Assembly (NCBI GenBank): GCA_951406725.2
Contig: OX597826.1
Coordinates: 79,112,001-79,176,000 of the forward strand
Origin: Octopus vulgaris
Taxonomy: Eukaryota
Direction: 5' to 3'
Length of the DNA: 64,000 nucleotides
The notes under the pieces were generated by a model. It did no database searches, was not told the DNA's origin, and saw only the letters and a list, made by a program, of their open reading frames with translations. A program made the position numbers and the translations under genes. Below are positions 7,720 through 55,699 of this stretch, piece after piece (position 1 is the stretch's first letter; every line of letters starts with the position of its first letter).

Positions 7720-10060
7720 TATATATATCTTAGTCTCTATGGCCCCCACCCCTATCTAAGTCTCTGTGAAGGGCATTAAGAACCAACAAGAGAGCCTCTT
7801 TAGCAGGCATGGGTACCCTTTTTTTTTTTTGAGAAGTGGGCCCTGCATGAGACATGATTTGTCATCAGATAGGGTGCACTACTAACAAAATTTAAGATAA
7901 CTTTTTTTGACGCATTCAGAAAGTCCCTCCCTGGGTCACATGCTGCTCATGACTGCTTTGTAGTTTTGTCTGCTAGAAATAGCAACCAAATCTCTCTTAA
8001 GTTACACCATACTGTCTTGACAAAAGACAGACATGTATACAATGATGAAGTATTGGATAATGTAGTCACAGAGATCTTGTCTTGCCTGGAAATACAGTGA
8101 AATATTGGTGGTTGGAGTGTTTCTGACCAAAGGTCTGCTGAGTCAAGACTGACCACAAGCATGTCAGCTGACCACCTGTGTGTTGCAGCTAGGTTCAAGG
8201 TTGTATTTGGACTGCACACTTAGTGTGGTCCCTCAGCCCTCTAGAAATAGCAGTCTAGTCTCCTTCACTTCACACCATACTATCTTGAAGCAAAGAAAAG
8301 GACACATTGGGTAAATGTAGTCTTAGAGACAAAAGTTCCAACATGGTAATTTCCATTCTAAAGGGAAGATTTTGCAAGGAATTTTTAGGTTATTTTTACG
8401 TACTTCCTTCAACATTGGAACATTTTGTCATCTTTGGGATTCAAACAGAAAAAAAAAACCCATTTCTGTTAGCTGCTGATTTGAATTCTTTATGCCACCA
8501 GTGTTGTCTAAAGGAATGGTAAGGGCCAATACAGTTTGGCTCTGCTGTTGTTACAGATGTTGCTGTCAGAACCTAAACAGCTGGAACTTAGTAAAAGGCA
8601 TTCTATTCAACAAACTTAGAGATCTTCTAATCTGCCATCTTGCATTGATAATTCAAAAACCTTGGAAGGATGAAAGAAAAAGCTGATTTTGGTAAGGATT
8701 TTAACTCAGAGAGCATAGCGAGTTGGATCAAACACCAGAAGGCATTCTAATAACCCTGTTAATATATTGTTTTAGTCTGAGATTAGTAAGGCCAAAATCT
8801 GGAATCTGAGGAAATTGGGAATGGTCTTTGTCAGCAGCACTTAGTTCCAAGAAGAATGTGGTCGGTTGAATTGCTGGATGGGAGTGAAGAATCTGACGTT
8901 TCAGGATCTTGTTCTTTGACTGTGAAGAAGAGAAAGAAAAAGTTGTTGTTTCTGGATTAAAAAAACATGATGGTCATAGTTGAGGCGCTTTTGATCAAAT
9001 TGGGAGATGTTTCTGTGGGAAGAGAATTATGTGCAAAATGGATTAGGGTGTGAAGTGTTTGGCATGGATGGAATCTCGGTCTGGTGATCAGGGAGTAACC
9101 CATTAAAGCTAATGAGGGAGGAAGTACTGTGTACATTGAGTGGGTTTAAATGGGAATGGTATTATAGAGTCTTTCGACTTGGAGGAATATCATCATTTAA
9201 CTTCTGTTTTCCTTGCTGGCATGGGTTGGACGGTTTGATAGGAGCTGGCATGGCTGGATTGCTGCACCAGGCTTCAGTTGTCTGTTTCAGCCTGATTTCT
9301 ATGGCTGGATGCCCTTCCCAACACCAACCACTTTACGGAGTGGACTCAGTGCTCTTAATGTGACGCCAGTATGGGAACTTTTTATGTGACGCCAGCACCA
9401 CTACTTCTTACATGGCAGCACTCTATGTGCTTTTTACCAACATGGGAACATTTTATGTGGCACCAGTGCAGATACTTTTTACATGGCACCAGCATCAGTG
9501 CTTTTCATGTGGCACCAGCACAGGCGCTTACCACATGGTACCAGCACTGGTGTGAGTGAAGACTATTTAACAAAGAATTCTGATGTCTTGGGCTGTATGC
9601 TCGGTTTTTGTTTTAAAGAGCATTCCTACACCTTTCCTTCAACATTGGAACATTTTGTCTTTGGAAATAAAAAAAGAAAGAAAGAAATTACATTTCTGTT
9701 ACATGCTGACCGAATTCTGATTCTGCAAGTTCTTTCCTGACCATATTCCAAATGTAATGTTAGTACAATTGTGTGGTGGTCAGCTGGCAGAATGACCAAC
9801 ACACTGAGCAAAATGCTGCCAAGCATTTCACCCATCTTTATGTTCTGAGATTGACTCTGCCTTTCATTCTTTAGGGGTTGATAAAATAAGGACCAGTTAT
9901 GCACTGGGGTTGATGTAATTGACTTACCCCCTCCTCCCAAAATGCTGGCCTTGTGTCAAAATCTGAAATCAATTTAAGGTTTAAGAGTTTATACAAACTG
10001 AAGATATCATATTTTCAGTATGCAAGGCGACAGAGCATATTGTGCAAACATTAAGACATT

Positions 10061-10509
10061 ATTTACATTATTTACATTATTTACATTTGATGATATTTGT
10101 CCTCATCTTGTTTGTTGTTAACACAATGTTTTGGCTGATATACCATCCAGCCTTCATCAGGTGTCTTGGGGAAATTTTAAACCTGGGTTCTCATTCCTAA
10201 GGTATTTTTCGATGTTATTATTATAATTCACCCCATAACATGCCCACGGGCATATGGCGTAGTGGTTAAGAGTGCGGGCTACTAACCCCAAGATTCCGAG
10301 TTCGATTCCAGGCAGTGACCTGGATAATAATAATAATATTGAAAAATATCTTAGGAATGAGAACCCAGGTTCGAAATTTCTCCAAGACACCTGATGAAGG
10401 CTGGAGGATATATCAGCCGAAACGTTGTTAACAACAAACAAGATGGGGACAAATATCCATCAAATGTAAATAATGTAAATAATTCCTCATCTTTTAAATA
10501 TAGGACTGT
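10061..10509 (+). mobile_element. Fold-back hammerhead/tRNA-module retroelement, copy 1
   Basis: Inverted arms ~10061-10223 and ~10325-10482. Central tRNA-like module at 10248-10320. Hammerhead motif in each arm (10386-10428 +, 10120-10165 -). Right-only tail to 10509. Exact TSD ATTAAGACATT at 10050-10060 and 10510-10520. Confidence 0.85.
10248..10320 (+). pseudogene. tRNA-derived Pol III module (not a functional tRNA)
   Basis: GGGCATATGGCGTAGTGGTTAAGAGTGCGGGCTACTAACCCCAAGATTCCGAGTTCGATTCCAGGCAGTGACC has an A box (TGGCGTAGTGG) and B box (GTTCGATTCC), but the acceptor stem does not pair. Confidence 0.75.
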
Positions 10510-13500
10510 ATTAAGACATTGTCCCTGTCTTTTCTAAATCCCTTCTACTATAGGCACAAGGCCTGAAATTTTGGGGGAAGGGGACTAGTCGATTACATTG
10601 ACCCCAGTCTTTCACTGGTCCTTATTTTACCAACCCTGAAAGGATAGAAAGCAAAGTTGACCTCGGTGGAATTTGAACTCAGAACGTAGTGACAGGCAAA
10701 ATACCACTAAGCATTTCGTCCAACTCGTTGCCATCCTGTCTTTCTAAATCCTGCAGCAGTATTCCACATGGAACTTTTGGTCCTCCAAAGCCAGTGATTT
10801 GAGGTATAAGTGTGACCTACCCCTTTCTCTGCAGTAAATTATGGTCTGAAAAATTCAACCCTACCCCACAAAACAAGGGAGTCACTTGTCAGATTTCTTC
10901 CACCACTATCACCTCTCCCCGCCACCAAACAATCTCCTCTCTTAATGTGTTATCAGTCAAACAAACAAAAAAACAAAAAAATAGTACTAAGCCACGTATG
11001 TCACATTTTTGGTATGTTTACTATTAGTATTTTTTTCTCTTTATTTTGTGGTTTTTGTGTGTGTTTTTCTTTTTAGAGTTTTCAATATTATCAGTCTGTC
11101 AGCTTCATTTAGAACATGTCCAACGCTTCATGTTTAAACTGTAAATTGCGTAGACTGTCTGTGTGTGTAAACATGTGTGTATGCTTGAGTGTGTGTACAT
11201 AGGTATGTATGTGTGTGTGTGTGTGTGTATTAGTAGAGTTGTGGTGTTGGTACCAACTCCAGAAAGGAAGATACGTTGTGCAGCAGAGATGAATTCTTTA
11301 AATTTTCTAAATGTTGCACCAAGACTTCTTCAGGACTGTCTCTCTCTCCTTCATAGAAGTGTGTGTGGGGGTTTATTATGCACAGCCTACATATACACGT
11401 CTTTACATGCACACACACACACACATATACTCTTATCATGTACATTTCTGTCTCTTCTTCACCTTCCTCTTCCTCCTCTTCTTCCTCTATTTTCCTTTCT
11501 CCATCTTCCTCTTCTTTCACCCTCTTCCTCTTCTTGTCTCCTTTTCCGCTTCCCTCTTCCTCCCCTTCTTCATCTACCTCCCTATTCCTCTCCTTCCTCT
11601 TCCTCCTCTCCTTCCTCTTCCTCATCTCCTTCCACTTCCTCATCTCCTTCCTCTTCCACCTCCCTCTTCCTCTTACTCCTCCTCCTCCTCTCTTTCCTTC
11701 TCCTTCTCCTCCCACCACCACTACTACTACTACTACAACATTCCATTTGACCTTTGCAAGCATGGAATAACTGCACATTAAACTAACAGTGACCACACCC
11801 GCACACATGCACACACACACAGTGGCACCATCATGAATTTCCCTTCCTATTTTACTGACCCAACAAATTATTCGACCAATCTTCAATTTTTTTTTTCTCT
11901 CTCTTCCTTTATGTATGTTTTGTCTTATTAAAAAGTTGAAGGAATTATCAATGAAATAGCAAACCCTTCCCCCCCCCATGACCATCCTATGTTTCCTTAT
12001 TTGTTTCCCAAGAGGGCCTTAACCGTTAGGGGTGATGACATAATTTCTCCATTGAACGAATGGCAGGGAATTCTTTATTTTCACCTGGGTTAAGCAACCA
12101 TGTTCATTTTTTTATTACCCACAAGGGGCCAACAAAGAGGGGACAGTACAATCTGATTTTGGGGTCAGATGAGCAAATGATTATACAAAATAATGACATA
12201 AAAATTTTACAAAAATAAGAAAATATAATAAAATCGAATGGTAGGACAGAACGGAAGACATTATGGATGGAATGGGGGGGGGGGGGTTTCGGACCCCACA
12301 AGCCCCGCCTCGCCACTGATACCTGAGTTACATCCTGTGTCGCATTCATGAGGTTCCATCCAAATGCAACATCCTTGCTACATTCTTCCATCGATTTTCA
12401 AACATTTTCACAGTCAGGCATTTTCTCTCTAGCCCTATTTTCCTTTGGGCAAGGTTGTTTATGGAAGACCAGCATTCGCCCATGCATACCAGCCTCCCCT
12501 CTCCATATCACTGATGTTATCCAAAGGGAAAGACAAAGGAGCCAATACAGCTTGGCACCAGTGATGTCGCAACTCATTTCTACAGCTGAGTGAACTGGAG
12601 CAACGTGAAATAAAGTGTCTTGCTCAAGAACACAACACACAGCCCAGTCTAGGAATCGAACTCACTACCTCATGATTGTGAGCCTGATGCTCTAACCACT
12701 GAACCATGCACCTTCACATACTACTACTACTACTACTGCAGTCTAGTGTAACACTGGTCTAGCTGCATTTTTTTCTCTCAATCTTACTCGTGTGTCACCC
12801 AGGTCCCTGGTGATGGTCATGACAAAGATGGAAGCGGACCCACCCTGTTAGTGCATGGATATCATTGATTTGTTGTAATTTTCATAGCAATGTTCAAGGC
12901 ATTGAGCTGGCAGAATCGTTAGCATGCCAGGCAAAATGCTTAGTGGTATTTCGTTTACCTTCATGTTCATCCAGGTTGACTTTACCTTTTGTCCTTTTGG
13001 GGTCAATAAGGTAAGTACCAGTTAAATATTGGGGGTTGATTTAGTTGACTTATTGCTCTCCCTCAAAATTGTCCTTGTGCCAGAATCTAAAATCCATCTC
13101 AATAGCAGTGGTTGGTTGATGGTTGGCTAACCCAGACACAATGCATATGGAATTTGAATTCTTGTGAGAATTGACACAATTCTTGTTGAACAAATGACAA
13201 TTTTTAGCCATAAATTTTCTAACACATCGGCTGACATATAGCTGTTCTTTCTTCATTGGTTTATTTTAAGGATTAGAGCCTACAGCATATGGCCCAAACA
13301 TGTAGTACGGTAGGGATTTGTTTAAAGAAAGCTTTGGATATCGTACCAGAGTGAATAGAATTATATCTTACCATTCTTTGTATATGTTCTTGGAGCAGCT
13401 GTTTCTAAGCTCATTACCCTTTCTTGTGCCTTCTCTTTCTATTTTTTTTCATCAGCGATTCTTTCTTTCTTGCTTCTTCTGCTATTTTTAGTAAAAGTTT

Positions 13501-14594
13501 TCTTAAAACAACTACAAACTTCTGTTCCATCATTCATTAGACATCTAACTTTTCCTTTCTCTCTGTTAGTTTAAGGTTGTGGGATTGTGTGTGTGTGTGT
13601 GTGGTGGGGGTTGTCAAATCATATAAACTCGTTTCAGTTCCTTTTTTTTTTTTTTTTTTAATGCTCTTTTACCTCGCCAACTCAATTATAACTTCATGGT
13701 TTAGACTAAATCTTCTTCTCTCGATCTCTTTTTCTTCCCTGATTTGTTTGTTTATTTTCTAAGAGTATTGTTTGTGGCATAATTTCAACCCCCTCCCAAC
13801 ACTATCTGCACCCCCTCTACTTCGCCCCCAGCCACACTGTCTTGAGAGTTTTGAAGTTAGGTGACTTTTATTTAAGAGAGAGAGTATGGATTGAGAGAGA
13901 GTGTGGATTGAGAGAGAGATAGAGAGAATGGATTGAGAGAGAGAGAGAGAATGGGAGTGAGAGAGAGAATTATTTTTTTTTCTTTAACTTAATTTTAAAT
14001 TCAGTATTCTTATTTTAAAACTTTGTAGCTGTCAGTTATTTTCAAATTAAGCGTTATAAAATTCTAATAAGGCTATATTAAAATTAGTGTACAACACATC
14101 TAACATCGCTTGATACAAACTTACACTCTGGCAGAAGTGTACCTTCCTCATCATTCGTTAAACAACTCCAATCGAGATACACACAACAAGCAAGGTTTTT
14201 ATGCATAAACAAACTACTGAGACTATGGTCCGAGAAAGGGAGTTTGGTTGTGATCTAAGGTTGCTTGAAACAGTTGATACCTCTCACTTGCAAATGTATT
14301 CATGTTCGGGGTAGGGTTTTTTTTTTTATTCTAAGTTCTTGAAGGTTCTAACTTTTGTTATGCAAATAATTTGAGTAGTAGAATGAATTTTATTCCAGAA
14401 GGAAGAAGAAATTTACCGTTTCAAGCAGAATCCTTTGTGCCAAGAATGGCAAATCCCGGGACCCAGTCTGGCAATGTTTCTGTTATTTTGTGTCCTTAAT
14501 ATCTAAATATTGTGCAGGGTGACGGCGCTGAGCAATGGTGTGTATGAATACAAACTTGTTACCAGTTCAAATACACTTGAAGCATATTTGAACC

Positions 14595-14940
14595 TACAGT
14601 TCTATATTTAAAAGATGAGGAATTATGTACTTTATTTACATTATTTACATTTGATGGATATTTGTTCTCATCTTCCTTATTGTTAACACAACGTTTTGGC
14701 TGGTATACCCTCCAGCCTTCATCAGGTGCCTTGGGGAAATTTCAAACCTGGGTTGTCATTCCTAAGGTATTTTTTGATGCTATTATTATTATTCAGGTCA
14801 CTGCCCAGAATCGAACTCGGAATCTTGGGGTTAGTAGCCCATGCTCTTAACCACTACTCGCTCTTACCCATGGACGTATGGCATAGTGGTTAAGAGTGTA
14901 GGCTACTAACCCCAAGATTCCGAGTTCGATTCCAGGCAGT

Positions 14941-14976
<36 letters not shown>

Positions 14977-15120
14977 CAACATCAAAAATACCTTAGGAAT
15001 GAGAACCCAGGTTTGAAATTTCCCCAAGACACCTGATGAAGGCTGGAGAGTATATCAGCTGAAATGTTGTGTTAACAACAAACAAGATGAGGACAAATAT
15101 CTGTTAAATGTAAATAATGT
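14595..15120 (-). mobile_element. Fold-back hammerhead/tRNA-module retroelement, copy 2 (near-complete palindrome, two divergent tRNA modules)
   Basis: Tail on the left (14595-14625). tRNA modules at ~14796-14857(-) and ~14873-14942(+). Hammerheads at 14685-14730(-) and 15028-15073(+). Probable diverged TSD ATATTTGAACCT (14584) / ATATTTAAGCCT (15121). Confidence 0.85.
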
Positions 15121-17433
15121 ATATTTAAGCCTGTAAGAAAATCAGTCACAGTATTCTGTGTTGGAGAAAAGTTCTTGCCGTAGACAAACAAGTGTCCCGT
15201 GATTTATTTCTGGCAGGCCACTGAATAGAACAACCAATTATTGAATGATGATGGGAATATCAGAAGAGGGGCCTGCCTTTCATGTCAGTTTACAGCATCT
15301 GCTTCTCCGGTCACTGGGGCTAAAGAGGAGATAACCCACTCCAAAATGCATGCATCCAACTGTCTGGTTAGGGGGCGCTGCAAACTGACTTGATGTATTT
15401 TCACCTATTTGCTTGCAGTGAGAAATTTTCTCCATAACAGAATATAGCGAATGAATGACTTTCTTTTGGGTTCAAATACGCCTCAAGGATGTGGATTGGA
15501 ATATGTTTGAGTGGTTTCAAATCCGAAAAGGCACATTGTTCACTTGATGCCCCTACACATATTCCTTTTAGTAAATGTTTGAATTTGTAGGACTCTTTAC
15601 TCTTTTACTATCAAAATCCCAACAGTTTTTTTTTTAATGCATTGTTTGTGGGGTGGGGTGAAATGGTTGTTTAAGCTATTCAGGTTTGGGCTTCAATTGG
15701 AGCACTGACACCCCAACCAATAAATAGATAAAACAACAAACTATGCAAAAAAAGTAAAAAAAGGTTGGTTTTTTTTTTACCAAAAAAATAAAAAGAATGT
15801 CAAAAATGTTAAATTAATGGTAGTTTGGTGCTAGACTTAAGAGGTGAATCATTGAATAATTTTTTTTTCTTTCAAAATCAGCCAGTAAAGTTTCTGGTTC
15901 AAACAGAAAAAAAGCTGAGTACAACTTAAAAAGAAAATAAAAAAAGAAAGGAAGAAAGAAAGAAAAGCACTAACAACAACAACAAAATGATTCATTTACA
16001 AAGCAGGTGTTGGTTCTAGTTTCTGAGAGTTTTCTTGATAAATGCCAAGAGTTAGAGACCTAAGGTAGCTTCAGGTAACTCTTAGATCTAAATGGCAATT
16101 AGTCTGCCAAAATTGGAAGATTTGTGTGCTTGTATGTATGAATGCATGTATGTATGTTTATGTGTGTATATTTGTGTGTGCGACTGTTTGTGTATGTGTG
16201 TGAAAAAAAAACCTTCATTTTTGTTTCCTTTTTTTTGTTTTGTTGGTGATTCTGGCTGCAGCAGAAGATTGGACTCGGTAAACTTCATTGAATTATGTGA
16301 GTTTTAGACCTGATGACTATAAATCATAATTTGCAGAATGGCCAGAAATTGAAATCACAACCTTTTGGTTGCCATGATCGATGTGAGGTTACTGACTGAA
16401 CATCGCCCACCTTCCTCTTGTCCTTTCTTTTCCCTCTCCATGTGTTATACGCAATACTATACGTAGTGTCTGTGTCTATGACTACAGAGATGAACTGTCT
16501 GTCTATTTGCATAACTGTTAGCCTTTTACAAGGTGGATGCCCCAGCGTGGCCTTAGCTGTGATAGCAAAGCAAAGAACTCGGTTATTGCTGAAATTCTAT
16601 CTCCCAAGATAACTGGAACCAAAACAAAGATGTTTGTTGAGTTTGATTCTCTCTGGAACTGGTGAAGGTGCATAGTTTAGTGGTTAGGGTATTTGGTTCA
16701 TGAATGTGAGGTCAGGAGTTCAATATCCACCAGTGTATTACGTCCTTGAGCAAGACACTTTATTTCATGTTGTCCACTCCACTCAGCTTGCAAAGATGAG
16801 TGGTCCCTGTATTTCAAAGGGCCAGGCCTTGAAATACAGGGACCACTCAATCCGTGTTGTGCTGAATCTCCCTGAGAACTACGTTAAGGGCATGCATGTC
16901 TCTAGAGTGCTCAACCACTTGCATGTTAATTTAATGAGCAAGCTGTTCCCTTGATTGGATCAGCTGGAACCCTCATTGTTGTAACCAACAGAGTGCCAGT
17001 GTTTCTCTCTAGAACCATAAGACCCTTAAGCCAAAGCTGGAGGGGAGAGTTCTGAAGGCATTTTTAACAATAGTCTGTATGATCCTTAAACGATGAACAC
17101 AAGGACCTTTCAACAGGGAGTAGGGAGTAGAACTGATAGTCTTCATCTTCATCGGTAATTTCCCCTAAGGGTCACTAATCCATGCAAATTCCTAAAAGAG
17201 ATACATACTAAGAATAAACCATTGTCAAAATATGGGGACAAGAGGCATTGTTAAATGCCGTTTTCTTGAAGGGAATCCTGAGCTACAAGTGGTGGAGGAA
17301 TGCTGCTGTATGCAGATAGAACATAGACTCTATTCTTTTTATGTATCATATAGCTTTTTTATGTTCCCTGCCCCTCAAAAAAATGAACAAACCAATCATC
17401 ATCATCATCATTTAGCGTCCGTTTTCCATGCTA

Positions 17434-17471
<38 letters not shown>

Positions 17472-17475
<4 letters not shown>

Positions 17476-17696
17476 GTTAAAGAGGACAACAAACATTAAG
17501 GCAAGGCAAACATCTAAAGTCATATACATTATTATTATTGGGAAAAATTCAAAGTCTTACAGCTGTTTCTGGGACATTCCATCATCAGAGACAGATAGGG
17601 AAAATGAGAAGGGTATAGATTAATGAAATGATGACATAATGTATATGACTTGAGATGTTTGCCTTGCCTTAACGTTTGTTCTCCTCTTTAACAATT
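17472..17696. mobile_element. Fold-back element with ~60-bp inverted arms enclosing a hammerhead, next to (TA)n
   Basis: 17472-17531 is the reverse complement of 17637-17696 with few mismatches. Confidence 0.75.
17554..17592 (-). ncRNA. Minimal type I hammerhead ribozyme motif (intact core)
   Basis: Minus strand GTCT-CTGATGA-TGGAATGTCCCA-GAAAC-AGCT-GTA^AGAC. Stem I GTCT/AGAC, stem II TGG/CCA, palindromic stem III ACAGCTGT, GUA cleavage triplet. Confidence 0.8.
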
Positions 17697-19142
17697 ACAT
17701 GTCCACTATATCAGAAATCTGCAAGGGCTCCATAAATACCATCTCGGCTATAACCTTGGAGCCCTAGTAATCTGTTACACCTATTACCTAGCTTACCTAA
17801 TCATTTAGACCACCTGTGAACTAAACCCCCATATTGTGTGTGTGTGGGTGTGTGTGTATTAAACAAACAACTCAATGGATGGTGACTTTGGAGTTTTGGC
17901 CAGCTAAGTCATTGTCACACTGCAGTCCGATGATGGTTTAGCTGGGTGAAACTCCGAAGTCACTGTCAATAGTATTCATGTTTAAGAATAATAAATCCGT
18001 ACTCTACAGAAGCAGAGTGTAACTCATCACATTGAGGTAAAATTGTTTCTATTATAACTGGACATAAGACTAAACAGTTATGTGTGTGTTTATATATGTT
18101 TGTATATGTGTAAATATATGTCTTACATTAGATGCGCGCGCGTGTGTGTGTGTATATATATATATATAGTAACAGTACCTGACCTTGTCTGGGTTTATTA
18201 ATACCCAAAATAAATATAATCCCATGTATTCACTATATTTTGGGTAAATTGCTTTAAATAGATGCTGACAATCTTCATCTGGTCTGAGAATGTTGATTCT
18301 CTCTGAATTGTTGCGTTCAGCCTCTCCTATCAAAAGATGGTTCAAGTTGAGATGCACAAAATAGCACAAATGCTTAAATATAGAACCTAAAATAAAATGT
18401 TAATTTTTACATCGTTATTCAAAATTAATTAGTTTTCAAATCAGTAATTATATTTTTGTTAATAGATGCAGACGTGGCTGTATGGTTAAGAAGCTTGCTT
18501 CTCAACCATGTGGTCTTAGGTTCAGTCCCACTGTGCGGAACCTTGGGCAAATGACTTCCACTATTGACCAAAGCCTTGTGAATGGATTTAACAGAGAGAA
18601 ACTGAAAGAAATCCATCATTTGTCTGTCTGTCTGTCTGTATATATGGTGCCATGTTGAAAGCACTCAAGCTGGTGCCATGTAAGAGTTCCCATGTGGTGC
18701 CATGTTAAAAGCTCCCATCTCACACACTGTAAAGTGGTTGGTGTTAGGAAGGGCATCCAGCCATGGCGACCATGCCAAATCAGACTGGAATCTGGTGCAG
18801 CTCTCTGGCTTGCCAGCTCTGGTCAAACCGTCCAACCAATGCCAGCATGCCCAACATGTGGGAAATGCAAGCGCAAGACGGCCCTTCCTGGCAAAGATGC
18901 TCCAACAGAGGTGCCACATGCTGGGAATAGAACAGAAGATCAAGGGAATGAAGAAAACATGAACTACACAAGTTCTGAGCCTATACCTTCCCTTCAGTCC
19001 CAGCAGACTGCCCGTGTCTGACCTATGCCAGAGCCTTCCATGTGATGTCCTTGGTCAGTGTCAACAATGAGGGATGAAATATTACTACTGCTGCTCTCTC
19101 CCTCTCTCTCTTTCATATATATATATATATATATAGCAAAAA

Positions 19143-19180
19143 CTGTCTGATGAACGGCAACGAGAAACTCAGAGTAACAG
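19143..19180 (+). ncRNA. Minimal type I hammerhead motif in a 149-bp insert (19136-19284) within (TA)n
   Basis: CTGT-CTGATGA-aCG-GCAA-CGa-GAAAC-TCAGA-GTA^ACAG. Stem I CTGT/ACAG, short stem II with GCAA loop (A:A mismatch at its base), stem III ACTC/GAGT. Confidence 0.7.
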
Positions 19181-19505: not shown

Positions 19506-19853
19506 ATAAGATCGTTATTTAAAATACCGATCATATCAAGTGGCTAGCATGGGAATAAAAACCTCATCGGTAATAATTATTATTAAAATTATAATTAAGG
19601 GTATTTAAAAGATACCATCATGCTAGAGATATCAGTCAAAACTTAACTCTAAAACCACATCAAATATTCATACAACACCAGAAGAGAAGCCAGAAATCCG
19701 GGATCTGGAATTATCCAATAATTTTTTTGCTAGTTTATTTTGTCTCTTTGTATTCTCTCCTGGTGATGTATGAACATTTAATGTAGTTTTAGAATCAAGT
19801 TTTGACTGCTGTCTTTAGCATGAAGGTATATTTTAGATACCCTTAATCATAAT
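19501..19853. mobile_element. Unclassified fold-back repeat next to (TA)n; related partial copy at ~25093-25348
   Basis: Arms 19591-19688 and 19753-19850 are reverse complements. The sequence aaatccgggatct.gaattatcca.taatttttt.ctagttt is shared with 25093-25140. Confidence 0.7.
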
Positions 19854-19924
19854 ATGTATACATGGTGGTTGTCTACTCTTGATGCAGAGTTTGACCACCT
19901 CTTGTACTTAAACCTTAAATCCAA

Positions 19925-32593: not shown

Positions 32594-32800
32594 TATCTGT
32601 AAATATAATATGTGACAATTATTCGGTAGCCATGATAAAACTTGGAGTTTTGGATGTTGGGGCAGAAACCCACATCGGCATCTCTTCAGCCATCAATGGC
32701 CTGGTAACTGAAGAGGTGTCAGTGTAGGTTTCCGCCCCGACATCTGAAACTCGACGTTTTATCATGGCTACCGAATAATTGTCACATATATTTACAGATA
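32594..32800. mobile_element. ~200-bp palindromic element with a hammerhead motif in each arm, in CA/TA microsatellite context
   Basis: Arms tatctgtaaatata..tgtgacaattattcggtagccatgataaaac / gttttatcatggctaccgaataattgtcacatatatttacagata. The + hammerhead is at 32702-32764. Confidence 0.75.
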
Positions 32801-41355: not shown

Positions 41356-42267
41356 TATATACTTTCATCAGTCAGTATTGCCCTCATGTAAGGCGCTGAG
41401 CCAGCAGATCTATTAGCATGCTGGGCAAAAAGCTTAGTGGCATTTCATCTGTTATCAGTTCAAATTCTACCAGAATCAACTTTGCCTTTCATCCTTTTGG
41501 GGTTGATAGAATAAATACCAGTTGAACACTGGGGTCAATGCTATCAATTTAGCCCCTCTTAAAATTGATGGCTTTGTGCCAAATGGGAAACCAATATTGC
41601 TTGCATCTGTGTTTGTGGGTGTTGCTACATGTGATATTTTGTCCTAAATCCATGATGATTTGTGCATTCATTTCCACTTAACATGTTTATGTTTCTGAAG
41701 GTATACATGAATGTGTGCATGTGAGTACACACATGCACACACAGTGCATGCTTGGTTTTTTTGAGACTCAGAGTAACAACAAAGTGAAGCCTTAGTTTCA
41801 GATGAAGGATGTATATATATATGATAAATATTAAAGAATGGAGTTGGTAAATCATTTTAATACATCGTTTACAATTGTTTCATCATTCTCCAACAAATCA
41901 GTATATCATCATCACTGTTTAATGCCCGCTTTCCCATGGGTCAGATGGAATTCGTCAAGATAGAATTTCTATAGCCCTCACCTGTTTCCAAGAACATTAA
42001 TATTTTCCCTTGGCCAGACATGTTTCTTTACAGAAGGCTGGAATGAACATCACTTGTATAGTGGAGATACTTGTTTAAAACTAAGATGTTAAAATACCAA
42101 TATAAGTTTCTTCCAGTCTCTGTCTACCAAATTCACTCACAAGGCTTTGTTTGGCCTGGGGCTATAGTAGGGGACACTTGACCACGATGGGACTAAACTT
42201 AAGACCATGTGGTTAGGAAGCAAGCTTTTTTTAACCACAGAACCACTTTATATATATATTTATTATA

Positions 42268-42673
42268 TATTATTTATATTTGACGGATAGTTGTCCCCAT
42301 CTTGTTTGTTGTTAACACCCTTTCAGCTCCACCCTTCATCAGGTCTTTCAAACCTGGGTTCTTTGATGTTATTATTATTATTGTTCACTGCCTGAAATCG
42401 AACTCGGAATCTTGGGGTTAGTAGCACACGCTCTTAACCACTACACCATATGCCCGTGGGCAGTTATGGGGTGAATTTTAAGGCTTATAAATCTAATATT
42501 TTCCTATCCTTCCTTAGGAATGAGAACCCAGGTTCGAAATTTCCCTAAGACACCTGATGAAAGCTGGAGGGTATATCAGCCGAAATGTTGTGTTAACAAT
42601 AAGCAAGATGAGAACAAATATCCATCAAATGTAAATAATGTACATAATTCCTCATCTCTTAAATACAGAACTG
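42268..42673 (+). mobile_element. Fold-back hammerhead/tRNA-module retroelement, copy 3, inserted in (TA)n
   Basis: Deleted left arm, tRNA module ~42383-42455(-), extra upstream sequence 42456-42510, right arm with hammerhead at 42549-42594(+), and tail aattcctcatctcttaaatacagaactgt. Confidence 0.8.
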
Positions 42674-44325
42674 TAATACATATATATATATATATGCATG
42701 GTCACATTCCAAATTGGTTTTTATTTGAAATTTCTATCCTCCTAGACAGATCAGGAACAATGTTATGGTTGAGCAATTCATTTTTGGTGTGGTTTCTATT
42801 GTTGCATGTCCTTCTTATTACCATCCACCTTACTGACACTGAGTGCATTGTATCATGGCACCAGCAGGAAAGAATTGTCTTGACCCTTGCAAGACTAAAC
42901 AGTCTTCTCTTTTTCTGCTCTTCATTAATTCATCAGCATCAGACATTCATATCCTGATGAAGACTAGAGAGAATCCTGTCTTTGTCTGTTTTCTCTGTTT
43001 ATTCATTTCCTCGTTTCCCATAGAAGAGAAGCAGGGTAAGAAGGTGACAGAAGAATAAAAGAAGAACCAAAGTAATAGGGGCAAGAGGGTGATAGGGGAG
43101 AGAAAAAGGGAGAGAGGTGAAGAAAGATAGCTGTGTTGTGGTTTTTGGTAAGGAGATAGGATAGAAATAACATGACTGATAAAAGAGAGAGAGAGAGAGA
43201 GAGAGTAATAGGATCAATAGGGTGATAGAGAAAATGGACAAGGGTGGGGAGGAGAAAATGAAAACAGCTACATAAGGATTGTTAGTATGGAGATGGAATA
43301 CAGACAGTATGAGCAGTTTTATGAAGGAAGAAAGTGGAAGGAGTGAGATAGAGTGATAGAAGATGGTGGGTGTTAAAATGAGTAACAGGGATGAAATAAT
43401 GGGAGAGAGAGAGAAAGATGGTAGCATTAAAAATGCAAAATTGTTAGGGTGAGTTTAATATGGAGAAATCTAATGAAATACCATTCCTTGTTGTACAGGC
43501 AGCAAGCTAAGACAAAAGAGACAGGTAACTGGAAGTCCGATTGATGGTAGAGTTGAGTAGAGTGCTGGATGTGAGAGTAACAGAGAAATAGAGAGAAGAG
43601 CAGGATAAGGAGAGTTGATATGAGCATAATGGTTAAGAGACCCAAATATAGATGTAATACATCCCAGTCTCCACCCCCATTATCATTTTTATGTCCCTTT
43701 TCCCATGCTGGTATGGGTTTTGCTCTTGGTCTCCTCTAGCACCACTCTTTACCACAAACTTCTTTTTTTTTCTGCCCTTCTCAAACCTAGCCAGGCTCAT
43801 GGGCCCGGTTTCTGTGGCGTATGTGTTCCCCCCAGCTGGACAGGACGCCAGTCCATCGCAGTATTACTCAAGAAACAGGAAAAGAGAGTGAGAGAAAGTT
43901 GTGGCAAAAGAGTACAACAGGGGTCGCCACCACCCCCTGCCAGAGCCTCATGGAGCTTTTTAGTTGTTTTCGCTCAATAAACACACACAACACCCAGTCT
44001 GGAAATCGAAACTGCGATCCTCTGACTGTGAGTCCGCTGCCCTAACCACTGGGCCATTGCGCCTCCACCTGCCACAAACTGCTGTCCCTTATTGGTGAGA
44101 GGTTCAGACTGCCATGACACTTCACTACTTCATTCCATGTCTTTCGACCTTTCTTGGTCTCCTGCTTCCACTTGAAATGCTCAACCATTTTTTGTATACA
44201 ATCAACATCCTTTTTATTAGTGGTTCCCAAAGTGGGTCATAATAGCATGGAAGGCGAACGTTAAACGATGATGATGATGATGATATATAATTTTCTAGGT
44301 TTCTTCAAACCATCTCCCCTTCATT

Positions 44326-44367
<42 letters not shown>

Positions 44368-46496: not shown

Positions 46497-46688
46497 TTCA
46501 TTATTTACATTATTTACATTTGACGGATATTTGTCCTCATCTTGTTTGTTGTTAACACAACGTTTCGGCTGATACACCCTCCAGCCTTCATCAGGTCTCT
46601 TGAGGAAATTTCAAACATGGATTCTCATTCCTAAGGTATTTTTCGATAATATTATCATTATTATTCAGGTCACTACTTGGAATCTTGC
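46497..46688 (-). mobile_element. Half copy (copy 4) of the same family, with an intact-core hammerhead at 46554-46599(-)
   Basis: Minus strand GAGAC-CTGATGA-A-GGCTG-gagggtgtat-CAGCC-GAAAC-GTT^GTGTT. Truncated within the tRNA module. Confidence 0.8.
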
Positions 46689-46778
46689 CTTACAGGAACT
46701 CAGCATTTCTGTGATTGTTAGACCTACTATAAGAAGCAGTCAGATCTTTGAGATTCAAAGGTAGGCTATGTATAGTCT

Positions 46779-48815: not shown

Positions 48816-48846
<31 letters not shown>

Positions 48847-49584
48847 TACAATGGGCTTCTTTCAGTTTCCGTCTACCAAATCCACTCACGAGGCTTTAGT
48901 CAGCTCGAGGCTATAGTAGAAGACACTTGTCCATGGTGCCACGCAGTGGGACTGAACCCGAAACCATGTAATGAGGAACCAAGCTTCTTACCACACAGCC
49001 ACGCCTGCAACCTATGGCAACAGTGCTAATAATTATTTCCCTTTGTTGGGTTTTTCTCCCCCTCCCCTCAATTTTAATAATGGTACAATTTCCTTTCCTT
49101 ATATCCAAGTGTAAAACGTAGTTGAACTCTAATTTTATTTATTCCATATTTTCAATGAAAAAAAAAAAGTAATGTTTGAGGCTTATTTGTGAGGAAGGGG
49201 GTATTTGTTGTTCTTGCAATGGTGTTTCCTCCGATTCTTGGCTTTATACACCATCCAGCTCGGAGATAAACTTACAGCTTGTTAATACGGCTTTTGTTGA
49301 TTCTTGCTGGCTTTTTGGTAACAGTGATTCTTCACTCAAGGTCTTCGGTTCACATTTCTGGGTTATAAATTTATTTTCAAGAAGAGTTGGCTACATATAT
49401 ACACGTGTGTGTGTGTGTGTGAGCATGCATGCGTGTGCATATGTTTCTTTATATGTGTATTAGCATGTGTGTGCACATGCATGCATGTATGTATGCGTGT
49501 GCATATCACTATATGTACTGTATGTTTGTATGTATGTTTTTGTATGTATATATGTATGTATAAATATGTGTATGTATGTATGTG

Positions 49585-49615
<31 letters not shown>

Positions 49616-51286
49616 AGAAAGTAATTAACAGCCTATCTTGTTTTTCATTTGAAATCTGAGAGAGGGGTGGGGTGGGGGGCGAAAGTAGATCAGGGTTGGA
49701 CTTAACTGAATACTGCAGATTTATTTCTAGTTTAACAGATTTATTACTTTCAACATTGAATATGTTAACACTAAGTTATTTACTAACAGACACTGGCTGG
49801 AACAATAGATTCATTATTGGTGCTGGTACCGAAGGCCCTCCCCCCTCCACACACACACACACTCCAAATCCATGTCTTCTTTGACTACATCCCACTTTCT
49901 TGTTACCTCTACTTGCATTATATATCTGTGTATGTATGTGTGTGTGTATGTATGTGTGAGTGTGTATGTATATATATGTGTGTGTGCATGTGTATTTTAC
50001 ATTCCTTCTTTTTCTCTATATAAAGTGATAAAGTCTTGCAATCTGGGTTGAATATGGTTTGCTGAGGAGATCTGATAAAGCTGAAACAAGTCTATTGATT
50101 TCATTTGTTGGCTTTAAATACAACATTCACTCCCATCTGCATCATCTTTATTTCTCCAAAAATTTCAGTTAGATGATTTTTTTTACCAGGTTTCTTCCCT
50201 TTCCTGTACCTTAAGCCTTTTGCTCCCTATCAAACATAATCCATTGATGACTTTTCTCCATGGTTCCACCCACAAGGTTTTGGTCAGCCCATGTCTATAG
50301 TAAAAGACACTAACCTGAACCTGGAACCGTGTGGTTGGGAGGCAAACTTTCTTACCCAACAGCCATGCTTGGGCCATAATTCTAGGTTTTACTCTTCCTC
50401 CTTTCCCATTCATTTTATCTTCTATTAGCAATCCTTGGAATTCAGTTTTTCCTAATTGAGGGTCCAGAATATTTTTTCTTTCTTTGATGTTTTCCTGTAA
50501 AATATTCTTAGTTTTTACGTTCTTCATAACTTGTCATTGGTTTTCAAGTTCCGTCCAGTTTTGTGAAAAGTCTTCTTTTGCCCTCATCTCAAACGCTTGT
50601 AACCTATTTGGTAAAACTTTGATTTGAGACCCATATAGCAGAGTGGACCATACATAACAATTAGTTCACAATGCATAACATTAATAGTAATTATATGTAT
50701 TTTGATATTTATATGTAAACATAACTCTGTGGTTAAGAAGTTGGTTTGGGTTACCAAGGGTTCAGAGTTTGATCCCACTACAAAGTATTGGGAGCAAATA
50801 TTTACTGAAGCTTTTGTTTGATCTTCATCTTCAGAGTGAGATTTGATAAATTGAAACTTTGTGAGAAAGAGGCCTGTTATCCAACCATCTGTCCATCTGC
50901 CCGCCTGTCCGTCTGCCCATCTGTCGATCTGTCTGTCCACCTGTCCGTTCCCCCATCAACATGTGTGTGTGGGGGTTAATATCTTGCTTGGAAACAGATA
51001 AGGACTGACACCAGACCGGACATCTGGCCCTAGTAAATTTTGTTCCAGTATAGACTCATCTGACCCATGCAAACATAGAAAAGTAGATGTTAAAATGATG
51101 ATAACGAGGATATGCCTCCAGTTTTCCAAAACGGCTGAAGCCATCCATGATCCACCTTTATATATTAATATCCCATTCTATATCTCTCCACAGTTCTCCA
51201 AACACACAGGGCCATGACCTATATGTATGTATGTATGTATATATATATATAAATATATAAATTTATTTTTCTTTATCTCTCCACAG

Positions 51287-51403
51287 TTTTCCAAACAGAC
51301 AGTATTAGACAGCTATCTCTCATTTGTTGATAATTACAAGAAATCTGGCAATGCTCTTGAAAATGACTTGCTGACAAAATCTTCTGTGTCAAAATTTATT
51401 GAG
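51287..51403 (+). CDS. ARHGEF17: RhoGEF DH-domain exon C (FSKQTVLDSYLSFVDNYKKSGNALENDLLTKSSVSKFIE)
   Basis: ccacAG acceptor and GTAAGT donor at 51404. 117 nt, phase 0/0. FSK..VLD.Y..FVDNY motif as in ARHGEF10/17. Confidence 0.92.
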
Positions 51404-51695
51404 GTAAGTGGCTTACGAGGCATGGCATGGCGGCATGCACACAAACGCATACCTTATTGACTGTCTCTTTCTGTCTATTACTCTCTCTCTCTGTCCTTGT
51501 GTGTGTCTACTAGCTGACTTTTTCTCTCCCCCCACCCCCTATTGTCTTTTTCATTCATCAACTAAGAGTGCACATGGCTTGTTAGGCTGAAGATTTTGTC
51601 TGTCTTTTAGTATTCCACCTGTTCTTGCTCTTGCTTCCCTCACCTGAAAAGACAATGTTATTGCAGTATGTGTATATGAAGGTAACTATTTATAT

Positions 51696-51747
<52 letters not shown>

Positions 51748-51936
51748 CTAATGGTAAGTCTGCATGTCTATTGTTGTATTATGCTCACCTAAACTAACTA
51801 ATTGCTTGTGTGTACCTAGTACCGAGCTTACAGTATTTTAAAGCAACTCTTAGTTGTCATATGTTGGTAGTTTACTATCAGTATGTATATATACACGCAC
51901 GTATCTCTCTTTCTTTCTCTCTCTCTCTCTCTCTCC

Positions 51937-51972
<36 letters not shown>

Positions 51973-52132
51973 CACGGATGGTTGGCATTAGGAAGGGCAT
52001 CCAGCTGTAGAAACACTGCCCAATCAGACTGGAGCCTGGTACAGCCTCCCGGCTTCCCAGACCCCTGTCGAACCGTCCAACCCATGCTAGCATGGAAAAC
52101 GGATGTTAAACGATGATGATGATGGTGATTGA

Positions 52133-52183
<51 letters not shown>

Positions 52184-54124
52184 TATGCACACATAGACAT
52201 CTACATAGGCACCAAATCCAATATAGATCCTAGATTGCACCCAAGGTTGGTTCCAAGTATACTGTACGTGTAAAAGAACATGATAAGCAAGTTCCCCTCT
52301 GTTTTATTTATAAATCAAGTCTAGAACTGTACTTGGATCATTCTTCAGGCCATTAACAGCTGACGGTTCACTCGGTCACCAGAGTGTATTGTCACATAGG
52401 ATCACTCAGGCAATTAAAAAAAATGGTAAGAATTTAGCTTAGGATTCACAGAATAAAGGCACAGCAGAAGCTGAATCCAATCGCATTTCCATTTGTTGGC
52501 TTCATTCGTGTGTTTGTGGACATATTATAAATATGTTTATGTGTTTCATGCTAGTAGGGTGCCAAGAGCACCATCCGAGTGTGATCGTTGCCAGAGCAGC
52601 CAACTGGCTCTGTGCCGGTGGCATGTGTAAAAAGATTCGAACGAGGTCATTGCCAGTACCACCTGACTGGCCCCCATGCCGGTGGCACATTAAAAGCACC
52701 CACTACACTCTCAGAGTGGTTGGTGTTAGGAAGGGCATCCAGCTGTAGAAACTCTGCCAAATCAAGACTGGAGCCTGGTGCAGCCATCTGGTTCGCCAGC
52801 CCTCAGTCAAAATCATCCAACCCATGCTAGCATGGAAAGCAGACGTTAAACGATGATGATGATGATGATGATGATTTAATAAATACGATTAAGTTGCTCT
52901 TTCATCTATTTTGCATAGAAAATAGAAAATGTTTTGCTTAGCAACAAGGCTAAATGTGTTTTTATTAAGCATACACGTTTAAATTCATTTAAATGAGAAG
53001 ACATTTATTCCTTCTCCGGGTGGAAGGGTGGATCTGATGTTGAATGACTCGAAATCCCCTGAGTACCAGAAATACCATTAAACGGTGCATCTCAGAACAT
53101 CCACAGAATGTATCTTGGAATCGAAAATAATTGTAAGCTGTAAAAATAGTTTTGTCTGCTTTAGTGTAGAAGAACCATCAGCAGGGTGTTCGTCTTCAAA
53201 GGGTTAATAGTAATATAGGCAGAGAGAAAGAGAAAGGGGGGTGTGTGTGTGGGTGGGTGGGTGAGAGAGGGAGAGATAGAGATTGAGGGTATGGTTATCT
53301 AATCTAACTGGAAGTTCTTTATCTCACTGGGGCACTGGGGTCATCATTGAAGCTTTCTGTTAGTTAAATTCTGTATCCAATGGCAACAGGAGCATGATGG
53401 GATTCAGAACTCAGAATCGGTAAAATTACTGAACTTGAAACTGTAAAAATATCCATTTGTGTTCACTCTATTTAATGATAATAGGTAAAAAAAAACAAAA
53501 AAACCCAAAACTAGAATTCAATTAAGGTAGCTTGTATGCGGTTGGTTGAAATGCTAGATATAGCAGTTGGGAAAGATACTTCAGATAATGTGGTCAGGGA
53601 TACATTATCATCATCATCATCATCATTGTTTAACGTCCGTTCTCCATGCTAGCATGGGTTGGACGGTTCGACTGGGGATCTGGGATGCCCGAAGGCTGCA
53701 CCAGGCTCCAGTCTGATCTGGCAGTGTTTCTACAGCTGGATGCCCTTCCTAACGCCAACCACTCCGTGAGTGTAGTGGGTGCTTTTTACGTGCCACCTGC
53801 ACAGGTGCCGGGTGAGGCTGGCAACGGCCACGATCGGATTAGTGCATTTTACGTGCCACCGGCACGGAAGCCAGTCGAGGCAGCACTGGCATCGGCCACG
53901 ATTCGGACGGTGCTTTTTACGTGCCACCGGCACGGAAGCCAAAAGTTAATAAGATGGGATGGTTATGGTTGGAGCACCCTGATCATAGGTCTGTTTGATG
54001 AAAGCTAATTTGCTATGAATAAGATAAGAGACGGAGGGGGGGGGCTAAAATGGTGAAGCACCAGACTAGTTATTATTTGTCTTTATGTTCTGAGTTAAGA
54101 TCTCAATGCTTTCCTCAGTAAACT

Positions 54125-54560
54125 CCTGATGTTGTGGAGTGGACATGTAGAGCACATGCCTGGCTCCAGACTTCCTGGGCAGATTTAGTTTGGTGAAGTA
54201 GCTGTTGTTTCTTGGTCATGTGGTAGATCAAAGAAGAGATAGAAAGTCACTCTCAAGACAACCTGAGTGAAACTTAGAACGGTCTACATGGGAAGAGCAT
54301 CTTGCTCAAGATCATTCACTCTGGCATGGGACTGTGTACTCTGAAGTACAGCACTCGAAATCAGAAATGATCAGAGAAACTTAGGAGAAGGGAACTGGAT
54401 GAAAAGCAAAGGTCCCACTTGGGCCTGACCCTGCTATAACATGTCCCCGCTCCAACCATAGGTTTTATGCCAATGTTGGGTTAATAAGCCACCTCAGGAC
54501 TCTCAAAGAGTAAAGCTGGTGACCTGGTCGTCTTCAGTGACATGGAGGACGAATGTCAGG
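54125..54560 (+). pseudogene. Decayed RTE/BovB-like LINE 3' fragment
   Basis: WSGHVEHMPGSRLPGQI*FGE...GRSKKR*K.TLK (cf. W.GHV.RM...RLPK..LFGEL...GR.KKR.KD.LK) and a terminal CP...RFYANVGLISHLR. Confidence 0.65.
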
Positions 54561-54669
54561 ATCTCAGTATAGTTGATTTTTTTTTTTTTTGCCTTTTACA
54601 ACCCTCTCAGATTAATAAGTCAAATTAACTTAACTCTGAACCCTACAAACTCTCACTGCATAGATTTCT

Positions 54670-54959
54670 TATTTACATTTGACGGATACTTGTCCTCATC
54701 TTGTTTGTTGTTAACACAAATACAACTGACATACCCTCCAGCCTTCATCAGGTGTCTTGGGGGAAATTTCGAATCTGGGTTCTCATTCCTAAGGTATTTT
54801 TCAATATTATTATTATTATTCAGGTCACTACCTGGAATTGAACTCAGAATCTTGGGGTTAGTAGCCCAAGCTCTTAACCACTATGCCATATGCCTGTGCT
54901 TAGTGGTTAAGAGTGCAGGCTACTAACTCCAAGATTCCAAGTTCGATTCCAGGCAGTGA

Positions 54960-54998
<39 letters not shown>

Positions 54999-55170
54999 CA
55001 TTGAAAAATACCTTAGGAATGAGAACCCAGGTTCGAAATTTCCCCAAGACACCTGATGAAGGCTGGAGAGTATATCAGCTGAAACGTTGTGTTAACAACA
55101 AACAAGAGGAGGACAAATATCAGTCAAATGTAAATAATGTAAATAATTAATCTCTTAAATATAGAACTGC
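54670..55170 (+). mobile_element. Fold-back hammerhead/tRNA-module retroelement, copy 5 (near-complete palindrome)
   Basis: Two divergent tRNA modules meet near 54895. Hammerhead at 55048-55093(+), degenerate one at 54713-54756(-). Right tail present. TSD ACTGCATAGATTTCT at 54655-54669 and 55166-55180 (partly overlapping the element end). Confidence 0.87.
55048..55093 (+). ncRNA. Minimal type I hammerhead ribozyme motif
   Basis: GACAC-CTGATGA-A-GGCTG-gagagtatat-CAGCT-GAAAC-GTT^GTGTT. Stem I GACAC/GTGTT, stem II GGCTG/CAGCT, loop-less palindromic stem III (AACGTT). Predicted cleavage after 55088. Confidence 0.75.
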
Positions 55171-55699
55171 ATAGATTTCTGTTATACACATCCAATCCTT
55201 CTTGTTGAACTTGCTTCCCACTGCAACTTCAATCTTGACTTAGATTGTCCTTGAATCCCAACGCATTTGGTGCCTGTTTGGAAAGGCTGTGGGCATTGCT
55301 CGACCTTTTCAAGCTAATAGACTCAAAAATTAAAACAAAAAGAAACAAAAAAGAAGAAATTTTTCCTTCTGTATGAAGCTCTACTGTTTGGATGATTTGA
55401 ACTTACAACTGCAAGCTAACAAGACAACATAGATGGGTTTGCCAAGGTCATGACCTCTGCCGACCCTCTGCATTGAATGTGTTTTATGTTCGTTCATAAA
55501 ATGTCCAATAAGTTCAGTTTGCAGTGGAAAAGGGGAAAGTCTGTTGCATCATCTGCATTCACTGCTGACCTCCACTTTCCCCAGCGACCCCTTTGTCTTT
55601 TTCTAATCCCTATCGAAAGGGAAGATCATGAAAGGTTAAACTCACCCTCATTCCTGGCATCAGCTGAACTATTCCATGATGTTCCACAAACAACCCTTT

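Follow-up and report, generated by a model that had tools for sequence, protein, structure and literature searches.

A stretch of 64,000 nucleotides (nt) from the genome of Octopus vulgaris (assembly GCA_951406725.2, contig OX597826.1, positions 79,112,001 to 79,176,000; 'the window' below means this full stretch) holds five copies of a short repeat in which a transfer RNA (tRNA)-like head is followed by a minimal hammerhead ribozyme motif. What kind of element is this, and how was it copied? An initial annotation, made from the letters alone, described a non-coding fold-back element, one that RNA polymerase III (Pol III) could transcribe and that was mobilised in trans by the reverse transcriptase (RT) of a Penelope-like element (PLE). 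We find that the whole 274-nt unit, head included, is the pseudo-long terminal repeat (pLTR) of a retrotransposon of the Penelope/Poseidon type in the same genome, about 2.6 kb long and bearing an open reading frame (ORF). On balance we read the repeats as 5'-truncated pLTR copies of this decayed element, with the tRNA-like module as its likely internal Pol III-type promoter, and with the element's own RT-endonuclease as the likely maker of the short copies, starting near the 5' end of the RNA.

Positions on the unit refer to a 274-nt majority sequence built from the 30 best genomic matches. In order, it consists of the tRNA-like head (7-80, with an A box at 14-24 and a B box at 57-68), an AAT run (82-99), a spacer, the minimal hammerhead (148-193, with cleavage predicted after 188), a run of short A-rich repeats from about 228 to 247, and a tail whose end lies at 272-274. 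A BLAST search recovered the five annotated loci and no further copy in the window, and the order of the unit, its hammerhead motif, the one-sided tail and target site duplications (TSDs) of variable length were all found as first described. The claim of an inverted duplication holds for copies 1, 2, 3 and 5, which are head-to-head pairs with one tailed arm each, and fails for copy 4, a single arm (63-247) without palindrome, tail or A box. Neither is the complete unit shared by every copy: most of the head is present on both arms only in copy 2 (18-274 on the minus strand, 2-244 on the plus strand) and copy 5 (4-237 minus, 16-272 plus). Copy 1 (85-247 minus, about -15 to 274 plus) has the head on one arm only, and the left arm of copy 3 (-54 to 241 minus, paired with 111-274 plus) extends into the last codons of an RT ORF. 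TSDs bracketing the whole palindrome, scored in three of the four paired window copies, are clear in copy 1 (11 bp) and copy 5 (10-15 bp) and of low complexity in copy 3; copy 2, outside the scored set, has a 10/13 match by eye. The individual features are as follows.

10050-10060, no strand: copy 1, left TSD, 11 bp
10067-10228, minus strand: copy 1, tail-less arm, pLTR 85-247, a G of the hammerhead core mutated
10242-10510, plus strand: copy 1, tailed arm, complete pLTR 1-274, with about 15 nt more of the ORF-side spacer upstream
10248-10321, plus strand: copy 1, tRNA-like head; A box 10255-10265, B box 10298-10309
10357-10510, plus strand: copy 1, start of the Penelope ORF (~52 codons) in decayed form; the frame has its first ATG at 10357
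10386-10429, plus strand: copy 1, minimal type I hammerhead (motif as defined in PMC4209133); core beginning at 10391, cleavage predicted after 10426, stem I lacking 2 nt in its 3' strand
10481-10510, plus strand: copy 1, one-sided tail, pLTR 245-274, interpreted as the distance that separates two RT start sites (compare PMC11167929)
10510-10520, no strand: copy 1, right TSD
14595-14857, minus strand: copy 2, tailed arm, pLTR 18-274
14867-15124, plus strand: copy 2, tail-less arm, pLTR 2-244
42266-42516, minus strand: copy 3, tail-less arm, -54 to 241, with internal deletions
42485-42516, minus strand: copy 3, end of the Penelope ORF (ten final codons plus stop, RKDRKILDL*), with the tRNA-like head directly downstream
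42512-42675, plus strand: copy 3, tailed arm, pLTR 111-274, no head
46500-46684, minus strand: copy 4, lone tail-less arm, pLTR 63-247; partner arm not found
54659-54669, no strand: copy 5, left TSD
54669-54898, minus strand: copy 5, tail-less arm, pLTR 4-237, hammerhead destroyed
54898-55169, plus strand: copy 5, tailed arm, pLTR 16-272, reading MRTQVRNFPKTPDEGWRVYQLKRCVNN from 55019
55170-55180, no strand: copy 5, right TSD

The identity of the unit follows from a comparison that the initial annotation had proposed, namely with the pLTRs of an autonomous Penelope element in the same genome: the unit is such a pLTR. Some copies run 5' of the head into a common sequence, which in one of them (L025) translates as an endonuclease-type C-terminus. 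Thirty loci picked by the DNA of the ORF end alone carried the head 20-25 nt past the stop codon in 27 cases, later pLTR sequence in one and neither in two. A further thirty, picked by a foreign protein, all belonged to the same family; 23 of them extend to the ORF end, and 21 of these have the head. Walking upstream from the ORF end, PLE RT motifs are met and then, at the 5' end of the ORF, the unit again, in direct tandem. The pLTR stands on both sides of the ORF region of about 2.3 kb in four of 20 long loci (L304, L306, L308, L309), and likewise in L354, L370 and L376. No intact ORF was present among the 20 long loci. The frame of L306 is open from the pLTR into the ORF, so that hammerhead and tail are coding sequence; they fall within the first ~52 codons, and about 156 of the 274 nt are ORF start, and the non-coding element first proposed is not supported. 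Matching candidates per query, which are not copy numbers, fell in a first look from 5775 (pLTR) through 2083 (ORF end) and 745 (RT) to 219 (N-terminus), a truncation ladder. In mapping the extent of the copies, matches at ORF offset -1475 to -1445 were excluded as a simple repeat of the reference copy. Contigs from sequencing runs of organisms labelled D and F bridge ORF end and head, and the matching stretch is present in runs labelled as six organisms, from 10 studies.

Two internally deleted loci, L317 (790-1900) and L213 (1445-2094, both oriented), have the first 330-680 nt of the ORF fused directly to the pLTR; both retain the junction and could be non-autonomous masters, and L317 has the pLTR on both sides. 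The spacer before the head (42445-42468 in the window, and in all ORF-attached copies) is an imperfect inverted copy of the first 11 nt of the head, and may have been left behind by a PLE-type inverted junction through which the element captured the head.

The ORF of the family contains the RT motifs GLAMGS and RYVDD, and RVT_1 scored above cut-off in two copies (E 2.4e-10 and 4.3e-9). At E<=1e-30 there are 39 long relatives of 660-1040 amino acids (aa), including an Anolis protein at 35%. The foreign homologue P0002 reaches 55% in the RT and has in common with the family's ORF start a peptide encoded by the hammerhead (TPDDG...PKRCVNN; 45% over 260 aa); the ORF-start peptide of window copy 5 matches P0002 in 11 of 17 positions. 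The C-terminus likewise aligns with relatives (VYSIPCSCG.LYKGET...). No CxxC-type linker was found in P0002 or in the Anolis protein P0015, nor by eye in P0067; it is present in P0001, of another family. A quick tree places P0067 as sister to P0002 (SH-aLRT 99), within the Anolis-like proteins and apart from P0001. The missing zinc finger in the RT-endonuclease linker, together with the grouping with P0002 and Anolis-like proteins in this tree, built without curated Repbase references, puts the family in the Penelope/Poseidon clade. P0015 starts with residues that fit the published hammerhead overlap of the Anolis element PAc, from which we infer that it is PAc. Metagenomes gave no relative with P0002 as the sole query, and viral contigs gave none with the alignment as the query.

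A young RT and GIY-YIG family of the same genome (L061-L066, e.g. L064 568-2004 and 1926-4268), Neptune-like and with a linker zinc finger, was considered as the partner and rejected: it shares no end with the unit, has no canonical hammerhead by scan, and its RT identity is 31%. Its 781-aa frame is open in 16 of 150 matches, and in two of six copies an open 479-aa upstream frame overlaps it, a second ORF being unusual for a PLE.

The footprint of insertion in the genome is of the Penelope type, as had been proposed, with inverted arms, a one-sided tail and variable TSDs. PLE features described in PMC8557442 include an inverted truncated copy and a one-sided tail of 30-40 bp, and the octopus insertions show the inverted 5'-truncated copy at the 5' end and a one-sided tail of ~30 nt. 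The 3' ends fall at two fixed places, about 247 and 272-274, and a paired insertion has one of each: a tailed arm (end at 268-274) is combined with a tail-less one (end at 233-256) in 54 of 65 head-to-head pairs, and the other 11 comprise one pair with two tails, none with two tail-less ends and ten with an unclassed end. TSDs were found in 41 of the 54 pairs (8-18 bp, mostly 11-13), compared with 1.1% of shuffled pairings. This one-of-each pairing suggests that each nick uses a different RT start site. The head-to-head junctions overlap by 1-13 nt in 31 cases, are flush in four and gapped in 30, counts that were made without a control. The term 'fold-back', with its fixed order of synthesis, was not sustained. 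Arms of one locus differ by 9.2% and arms of different loci by 9.4%, and either arm may reach further 5' (the tail-less arm in 30 of the 54 pairs, the tailed arm in 21, equal in three), so neither arm is a fixed fold-back copy of the other.

Some odd architectures were also seen: a tail-to-tail pair inside AAT arrays (L097 1430-1953), a three-arm insertion (L093 1077-1790), and a tail-less arm whose partner is reduced to a tail stub of ~15 nt (L088 1441-1590). Tens of thousands of inverted pairs of 200-250 bp (e.g. 14595-15124 in the window) would yield long double-stranded RNA in host transcripts and are possible editing substrates.

The hammerhead fits the minimal PLE type described in PMC4209133 (core, extra nucleotide, stems I and II, palindromic stem III), in agreement with the initial annotation. 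The foreign relatives comprised 80 loci, from which three near-duplicates were dropped; 36 had enough flank, and 12 of these carry the same minimal hammerhead type 30-470 nt past the ORF. Their stems are changed yet still paired and palindromic stem III occurs in variants, i.e. there is covariation across families, and for this reason we take the hammerhead as most likely a genuine ribozyme of this lineage. The Rfam hammerhead model, proposed earlier as a check, gave no match at E<=1 in the window or at E<=10 in copy 1, nor on a perfect 71-nt copy. Core and stems are unchanged in none of the nine window arms; among 99 unselected genomic arms the core is intact in 33, and core plus stems in one. 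Conservation among genomic copies is an unfair test, because copies decay after insertion. CpG sites are changed in 22% of cases inside the hammerhead versus 24% overall, and non-CpG core sites are changed less often than other non-CpG sites (31/1026 versus 754/13967), which we leave unexplained. A variant motif from loose ends of RNA runs has no exact genomic match.

The predicted cut after 188 marks neither end of the copies. Among 177 arms, drawn from 90 hammerhead-anchored loci, random stretches and the window, two begin at 190 and few have their end near 188; the ends of copies are thus not fixed by the cut, and the motif is probably a protein- or dimer-dependent ribozyme of the parent element. 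The earlier phrase 'paired hammerheads' is also misleading: the two motifs lie on opposite strands, and one transcript therefore contains one ribozyme and its antisense. By energy modelling, read-through RNA of an inverted pair would fold as a long hairpin (-264 to -337 kcal/mol) and not as a ribozyme dimer.

The derivation of the head from a tRNA, with A and B boxes, was upheld: it scores 63 against a set of 38 genomic tRNA sequences, whereas none of 300 shuffles exceeds 46.5 and stretches elsewhere in the unit score 13-27. The set was taken from retrieved loci and covers some isotypes only, so the donor is not fixed; the nearest sampled isotype is Arg(TCG) (47/75), with Ala, Val and Arg(TCT) close. 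ARAGORN called no tRNA, and the head reached 14.9 bits (E 0.7) with a tRNA model. A tRNA-like segment after the ORF was found in none of the 36 foreign relatives (best score 41; own family 54.5 and 65).

At this head the 5' ends of the copies accumulate. Of 76 arms reaching position 24, 63 (about 83%) stop between -2 and 24, and the 13 that continue run into the ORF side as a smooth ladder to about -780. Over the 177 arms, the rate of 5' ends per nt is 6.6% at -2 to 14 (about 15-20 times background), 2.5% at 15-24 and 0.3-0.4% in the flanking intervals. Another excess, of 1.5% per nt, lies in the AAT run at 82-99 (32 of 128 5' ends), a run that in some copies has grown to hundreds of bases.

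The sense strand is furthermore poor in TTTT. There is none in the pLTR majority, none shared in the ORF and thus no ancestral TTTT over 2.6 kb; aligned copies have 30 per 94.6 kb, each site in at most 4 of 17-58 copies, although TTT is common (21 in L313). By comparison, 56 composition-matched relatives have 218 in 77 kb (2.8 per kb), four other RT/GIY-YIG (PLE) families of the same genome have 9, 8, 4 and 3 (2.4-4.6 per kb), and not one of 20 relatives of at least 1.7 kb has zero. The 5' wall at the head, the absence of the head from 36 relatives and the lack of ancestral TTTT together point to a Pol III-type promoter for the whole element. From these features we lean slightly towards Pol III as the polymerase of the short RNA, and are more doubtful that it transcribed the whole unit.

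How else could these observations arise? A miniature inverted-repeat transposable element (MITE), or another fold-back DNA element that a transposase mobilises by its inverted ends, would also have long inverted arms and TSDs. Here the arms are unequal, the outer ends differ by the tail, the TSDs show no fixed length, and many copies are one-armed; as the sequence is moreover the terminal repeat of an RT element, the link to the ORF refutes such an origin, which we regard as very nearly excluded, and the initial annotation was right not to call the repeat a MITE. It is unlikely, yet worth serious attention, that the element is as we describe it and the head a mere passenger, an old tRNA or short interspersed element (SINE) inserted in the pLTR, with RNA made by Pol II as in Drosophila Penelope and the 5' wall caused by a Pol II start near the head or by a hairpin. 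Between the wall and the near-perfect A box downstream of it lie 7-15 nt, the spacing generally expected for a tRNA-type start. A hairpin does lie at the head start, with 17 arms ending at 15-24 near its 3' base, but the hammerhead region folds about equally well (-13.6 kcal/mol) without a comparable wall. A passenger head would also agree with the need to translate the ORF and with the internal promoter, like that of long interspersed elements (LINEs), described for the Penelope pLTR (PMC2377424). Some head-less relatives are TTTT-poor as well, whereas all 20 of at least 1.7 kb contain TTTT.

We consider it improbable that the short copies are an independent Pol III SINE, a tRNA head with a Penelope end, having its own short masters and using Penelope protein in trans, and that the ORF-attached heads arose by an earlier or later fusion. 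Most copies are indeed short head-to-tail units: 40 random 10-kb stretches hold eight short loci (10 at a looser cut-off) and no ORF sequence, which extrapolates to about 56,000 loci in the genome of 2.8 Gb in 227 contigs (Poisson range about 25,000-110,000), and the window is ~4 times as dense. The exact 35-nt hammerhead pattern occurs 1709 times in the genome, its reversed control not at all. A wall at the head is what a SINE would give, the internally deleted L213 and L317 could serve as non-autonomous masters, and non-autonomous PLE derivatives have been described (10.64898/2026.07.22.740005). However, the ORF-bearing element includes the head as a fixed component, the 13 continuing arms grade into the ORF side, and solo copies stop at the tail, without the downstream ORF stretch that PAc needs (PMC11167929). 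In addition, 69 short head-starting and 93 ORF-attached arms have the identical majority base at all compared positions and no diagnostic site, seven flagged sites being hammerhead positions, repeat-count ambiguity and one gap-richer site. Divergence from the majority is about 6%, with 6.2% for short and 6.7% for ORF-attached arms, i.e. equal age. The short loci are a small sample, chosen by the hammerhead pattern and mostly from one chromosome, in which the shared majority bases argue against a separate SINE lineage and against the mobilisation in trans first proposed. A tRNA-derived SINE is non-autonomous, distinct from its partner and shares only the 3' end with it; here the whole unit is the partner's pLTR. 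At the octopus rate of PMC13282606, ~6% divergence would correspond to about 17-18 million years, the age of a SINE/LINE burst reported there.

For the reading as pLTR copies of one ORF-bearing element, a mechanism can be modelled on PAc. According to Frangieh et al. 2024 (PMC11167929), PAc cuts both strands, has two internal RT start sites whose distance equals the tail and requires a template that includes the ORF's first 172 nt; a dimer is predicted, and hammerhead cleavage is dispensable for insertion. The octopus element resembles it in the single ORF with RT and putative C-terminal endonuclease in partial tandem with pLTRs, in the overlap of hammerhead and ORF start, in two apparent RT start sites inside the ORF spaced by the tail, and in apparent cutting of both strands. 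The outer start site lies about 86 nt past the predicted hammerhead cut in the octopus element, and the numbers of the PAc paper give 85-92 nt for PAc. Unlike PAc, the octopus element has a tRNA-like A/B-box module filling most of the non-coding pLTR, no TTTT in the sense strand, head-reaching arms that mostly stop at the head, and a decayed family.

By this analogy, RNA would start at the tRNA-like head and read through the tandem unit, and the protein would bind the pLTR-ORF junction and cut both DNA strands about 11-13 bp apart. Each nick would prime complementary DNA (cDNA) at one of the two internal start sites, and the two cDNAs would join head to head. Starting at the first junction, RT would give copies of at most 274 nt, the SINE-like majority; from a later junction it would make copies that bear the ORF, and one element would thus produce both. 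Solo short copies are probably dead ends, since they lack the post-tail ORF sequence that PAc requires. A fuller version, which we put forward tentatively, is that a protein-coding Penelope element captured a tRNA-type promoter, was transcribed end to end by Pol III, had its 2.6-kb unit purged of terminators, and used both RT start sites once per insertion, as an asymmetric dimer would; since PLE RT begins within the ORF, close to the 5' end of the RNA, such an element would have given rise in cis to a 'SINE' of its own.

Several points weigh against our reading. Uncapped Pol III RNA is a poor mRNA, and the protein may therefore have needed another transcript. Cleavage-linked cap-independent translation is reported for viral ribozymes (PMC13725137); the octopus hammerhead would cut 70 nt past the first ATG. 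The hairpin spanning the head start (-13.4 kcal/mol) might on its own halt RT or favour fold-back. TTTT is moderately depleted: seven of 300 dinucleotide shuffles of the best full copy, L313, are also TTTT-free (p about 0.02), most single open stretches fall short of significance, no deficit is seen in L308, four of 77 relatives of 1.0-1.6 kb also lack TTTT and some have ~0.5 per kb. The arms of an insertion have slightly more derived sites in common than arms taken at random (0.7% versus 0.4%, p 0.0009), so source sublineages may exist. Pfam GIY-YIG (PF01541) did not score on the family's C-terminus, and also missed P0002 and the Anolis protein. Finally, no copy with the ORF on both sides of a pLTR was present among 303 arms, so the tandem master is only inferred.

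Among known systems, tRNA-derived SINEs have in common with the octopus unit a head with A and B boxes, short length and very high copy number. They have a LINE-type tail or simple-repeat end, which the unit lacks, and differ from its inverted double-arm insertions and from a head that is part of a protein-coding parent; octopus tRNA-derived SINEs were reportedly described by Ohshima and Okada in 1994 and are compared here by type only. SM-alpha of Schistosoma is a short hammerhead-bearing repeat related to PLE pLTRs. So are metazoan non-LTR retrozymes (PMC7761336; 10.64898/2026.07.22.740005), whose units form direct tandems yielding circular RNAs, whereas octopus arms are inverted or single and no direct tandem of the short unit was found among the loci examined. 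The TRIMp3 elements Helenus, Ajax and Cassandra (Kojima 2024, PMC10886601) also have a small-RNA-derived Pol III promoter inside the terminal repeat. They are non-autonomous LTR elements, with autonomous partners argued to need Pol II, and the octopus repeat belongs to the ORF-bearing PLE itself. With the minimal hammerheads of metazoan PLEs (Cervera and de la Pena 2014, PMC4209133) the octopus motif shares the extra nucleotide between core position 9 and stem II, the G-C closing pair, the palindromic 15.2-16.2 pair and the short stem I; its triplet, GUU, recurs in five of eight distinct foreign motifs. That paper also describes Schistosoma hammerhead pairs on opposite strands, 100-700 bp apart, read as truncated PLEs, and its hammerhead descriptions report no tRNA-like neighbour. 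PLE structure, minimal hammerheads and opposite-strand pairs are thus already known. New are the 5' wall at the head (63 of 76 arms), a head absent in the 36 foreign relatives, and a sense strand without ancestral TTTT. In the literature we found no PLE with a tRNA-derived pLTR and no ORF-bearing PLE on Pol III, Repbase and Dfam being outside the comparison; the nearest systems there are the TRIMp3 LTR elements and the retrozymes derived from PLEs.

Apart from these copies, the window contains other inverted-repeat elements of unrelated families at 17468-17700, 19581-19860, 32608-32789, 52669-53809 and 59292-60270. No protein family of note was found in the 35 scanned of its 108 long frames.

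For the biology of these elements, a tRNA promoter within a PLE terminal repeat would be a route to a SINE-like family without a separate SINE, and the estimated 25,000-110,000 octopus loci, likely filed as SINEs by annotators, are Penelope ends. The strict pairing of tailed and tail-less arms adds evidence from a genome on those later steps of PLE integration that are not yet settled. Were the whole unit driven by Pol III, a Pol III promoter would here serve a retrotransposon with an ORF, an arrangement deemed unlikely for LTR elements (PMC10886601).

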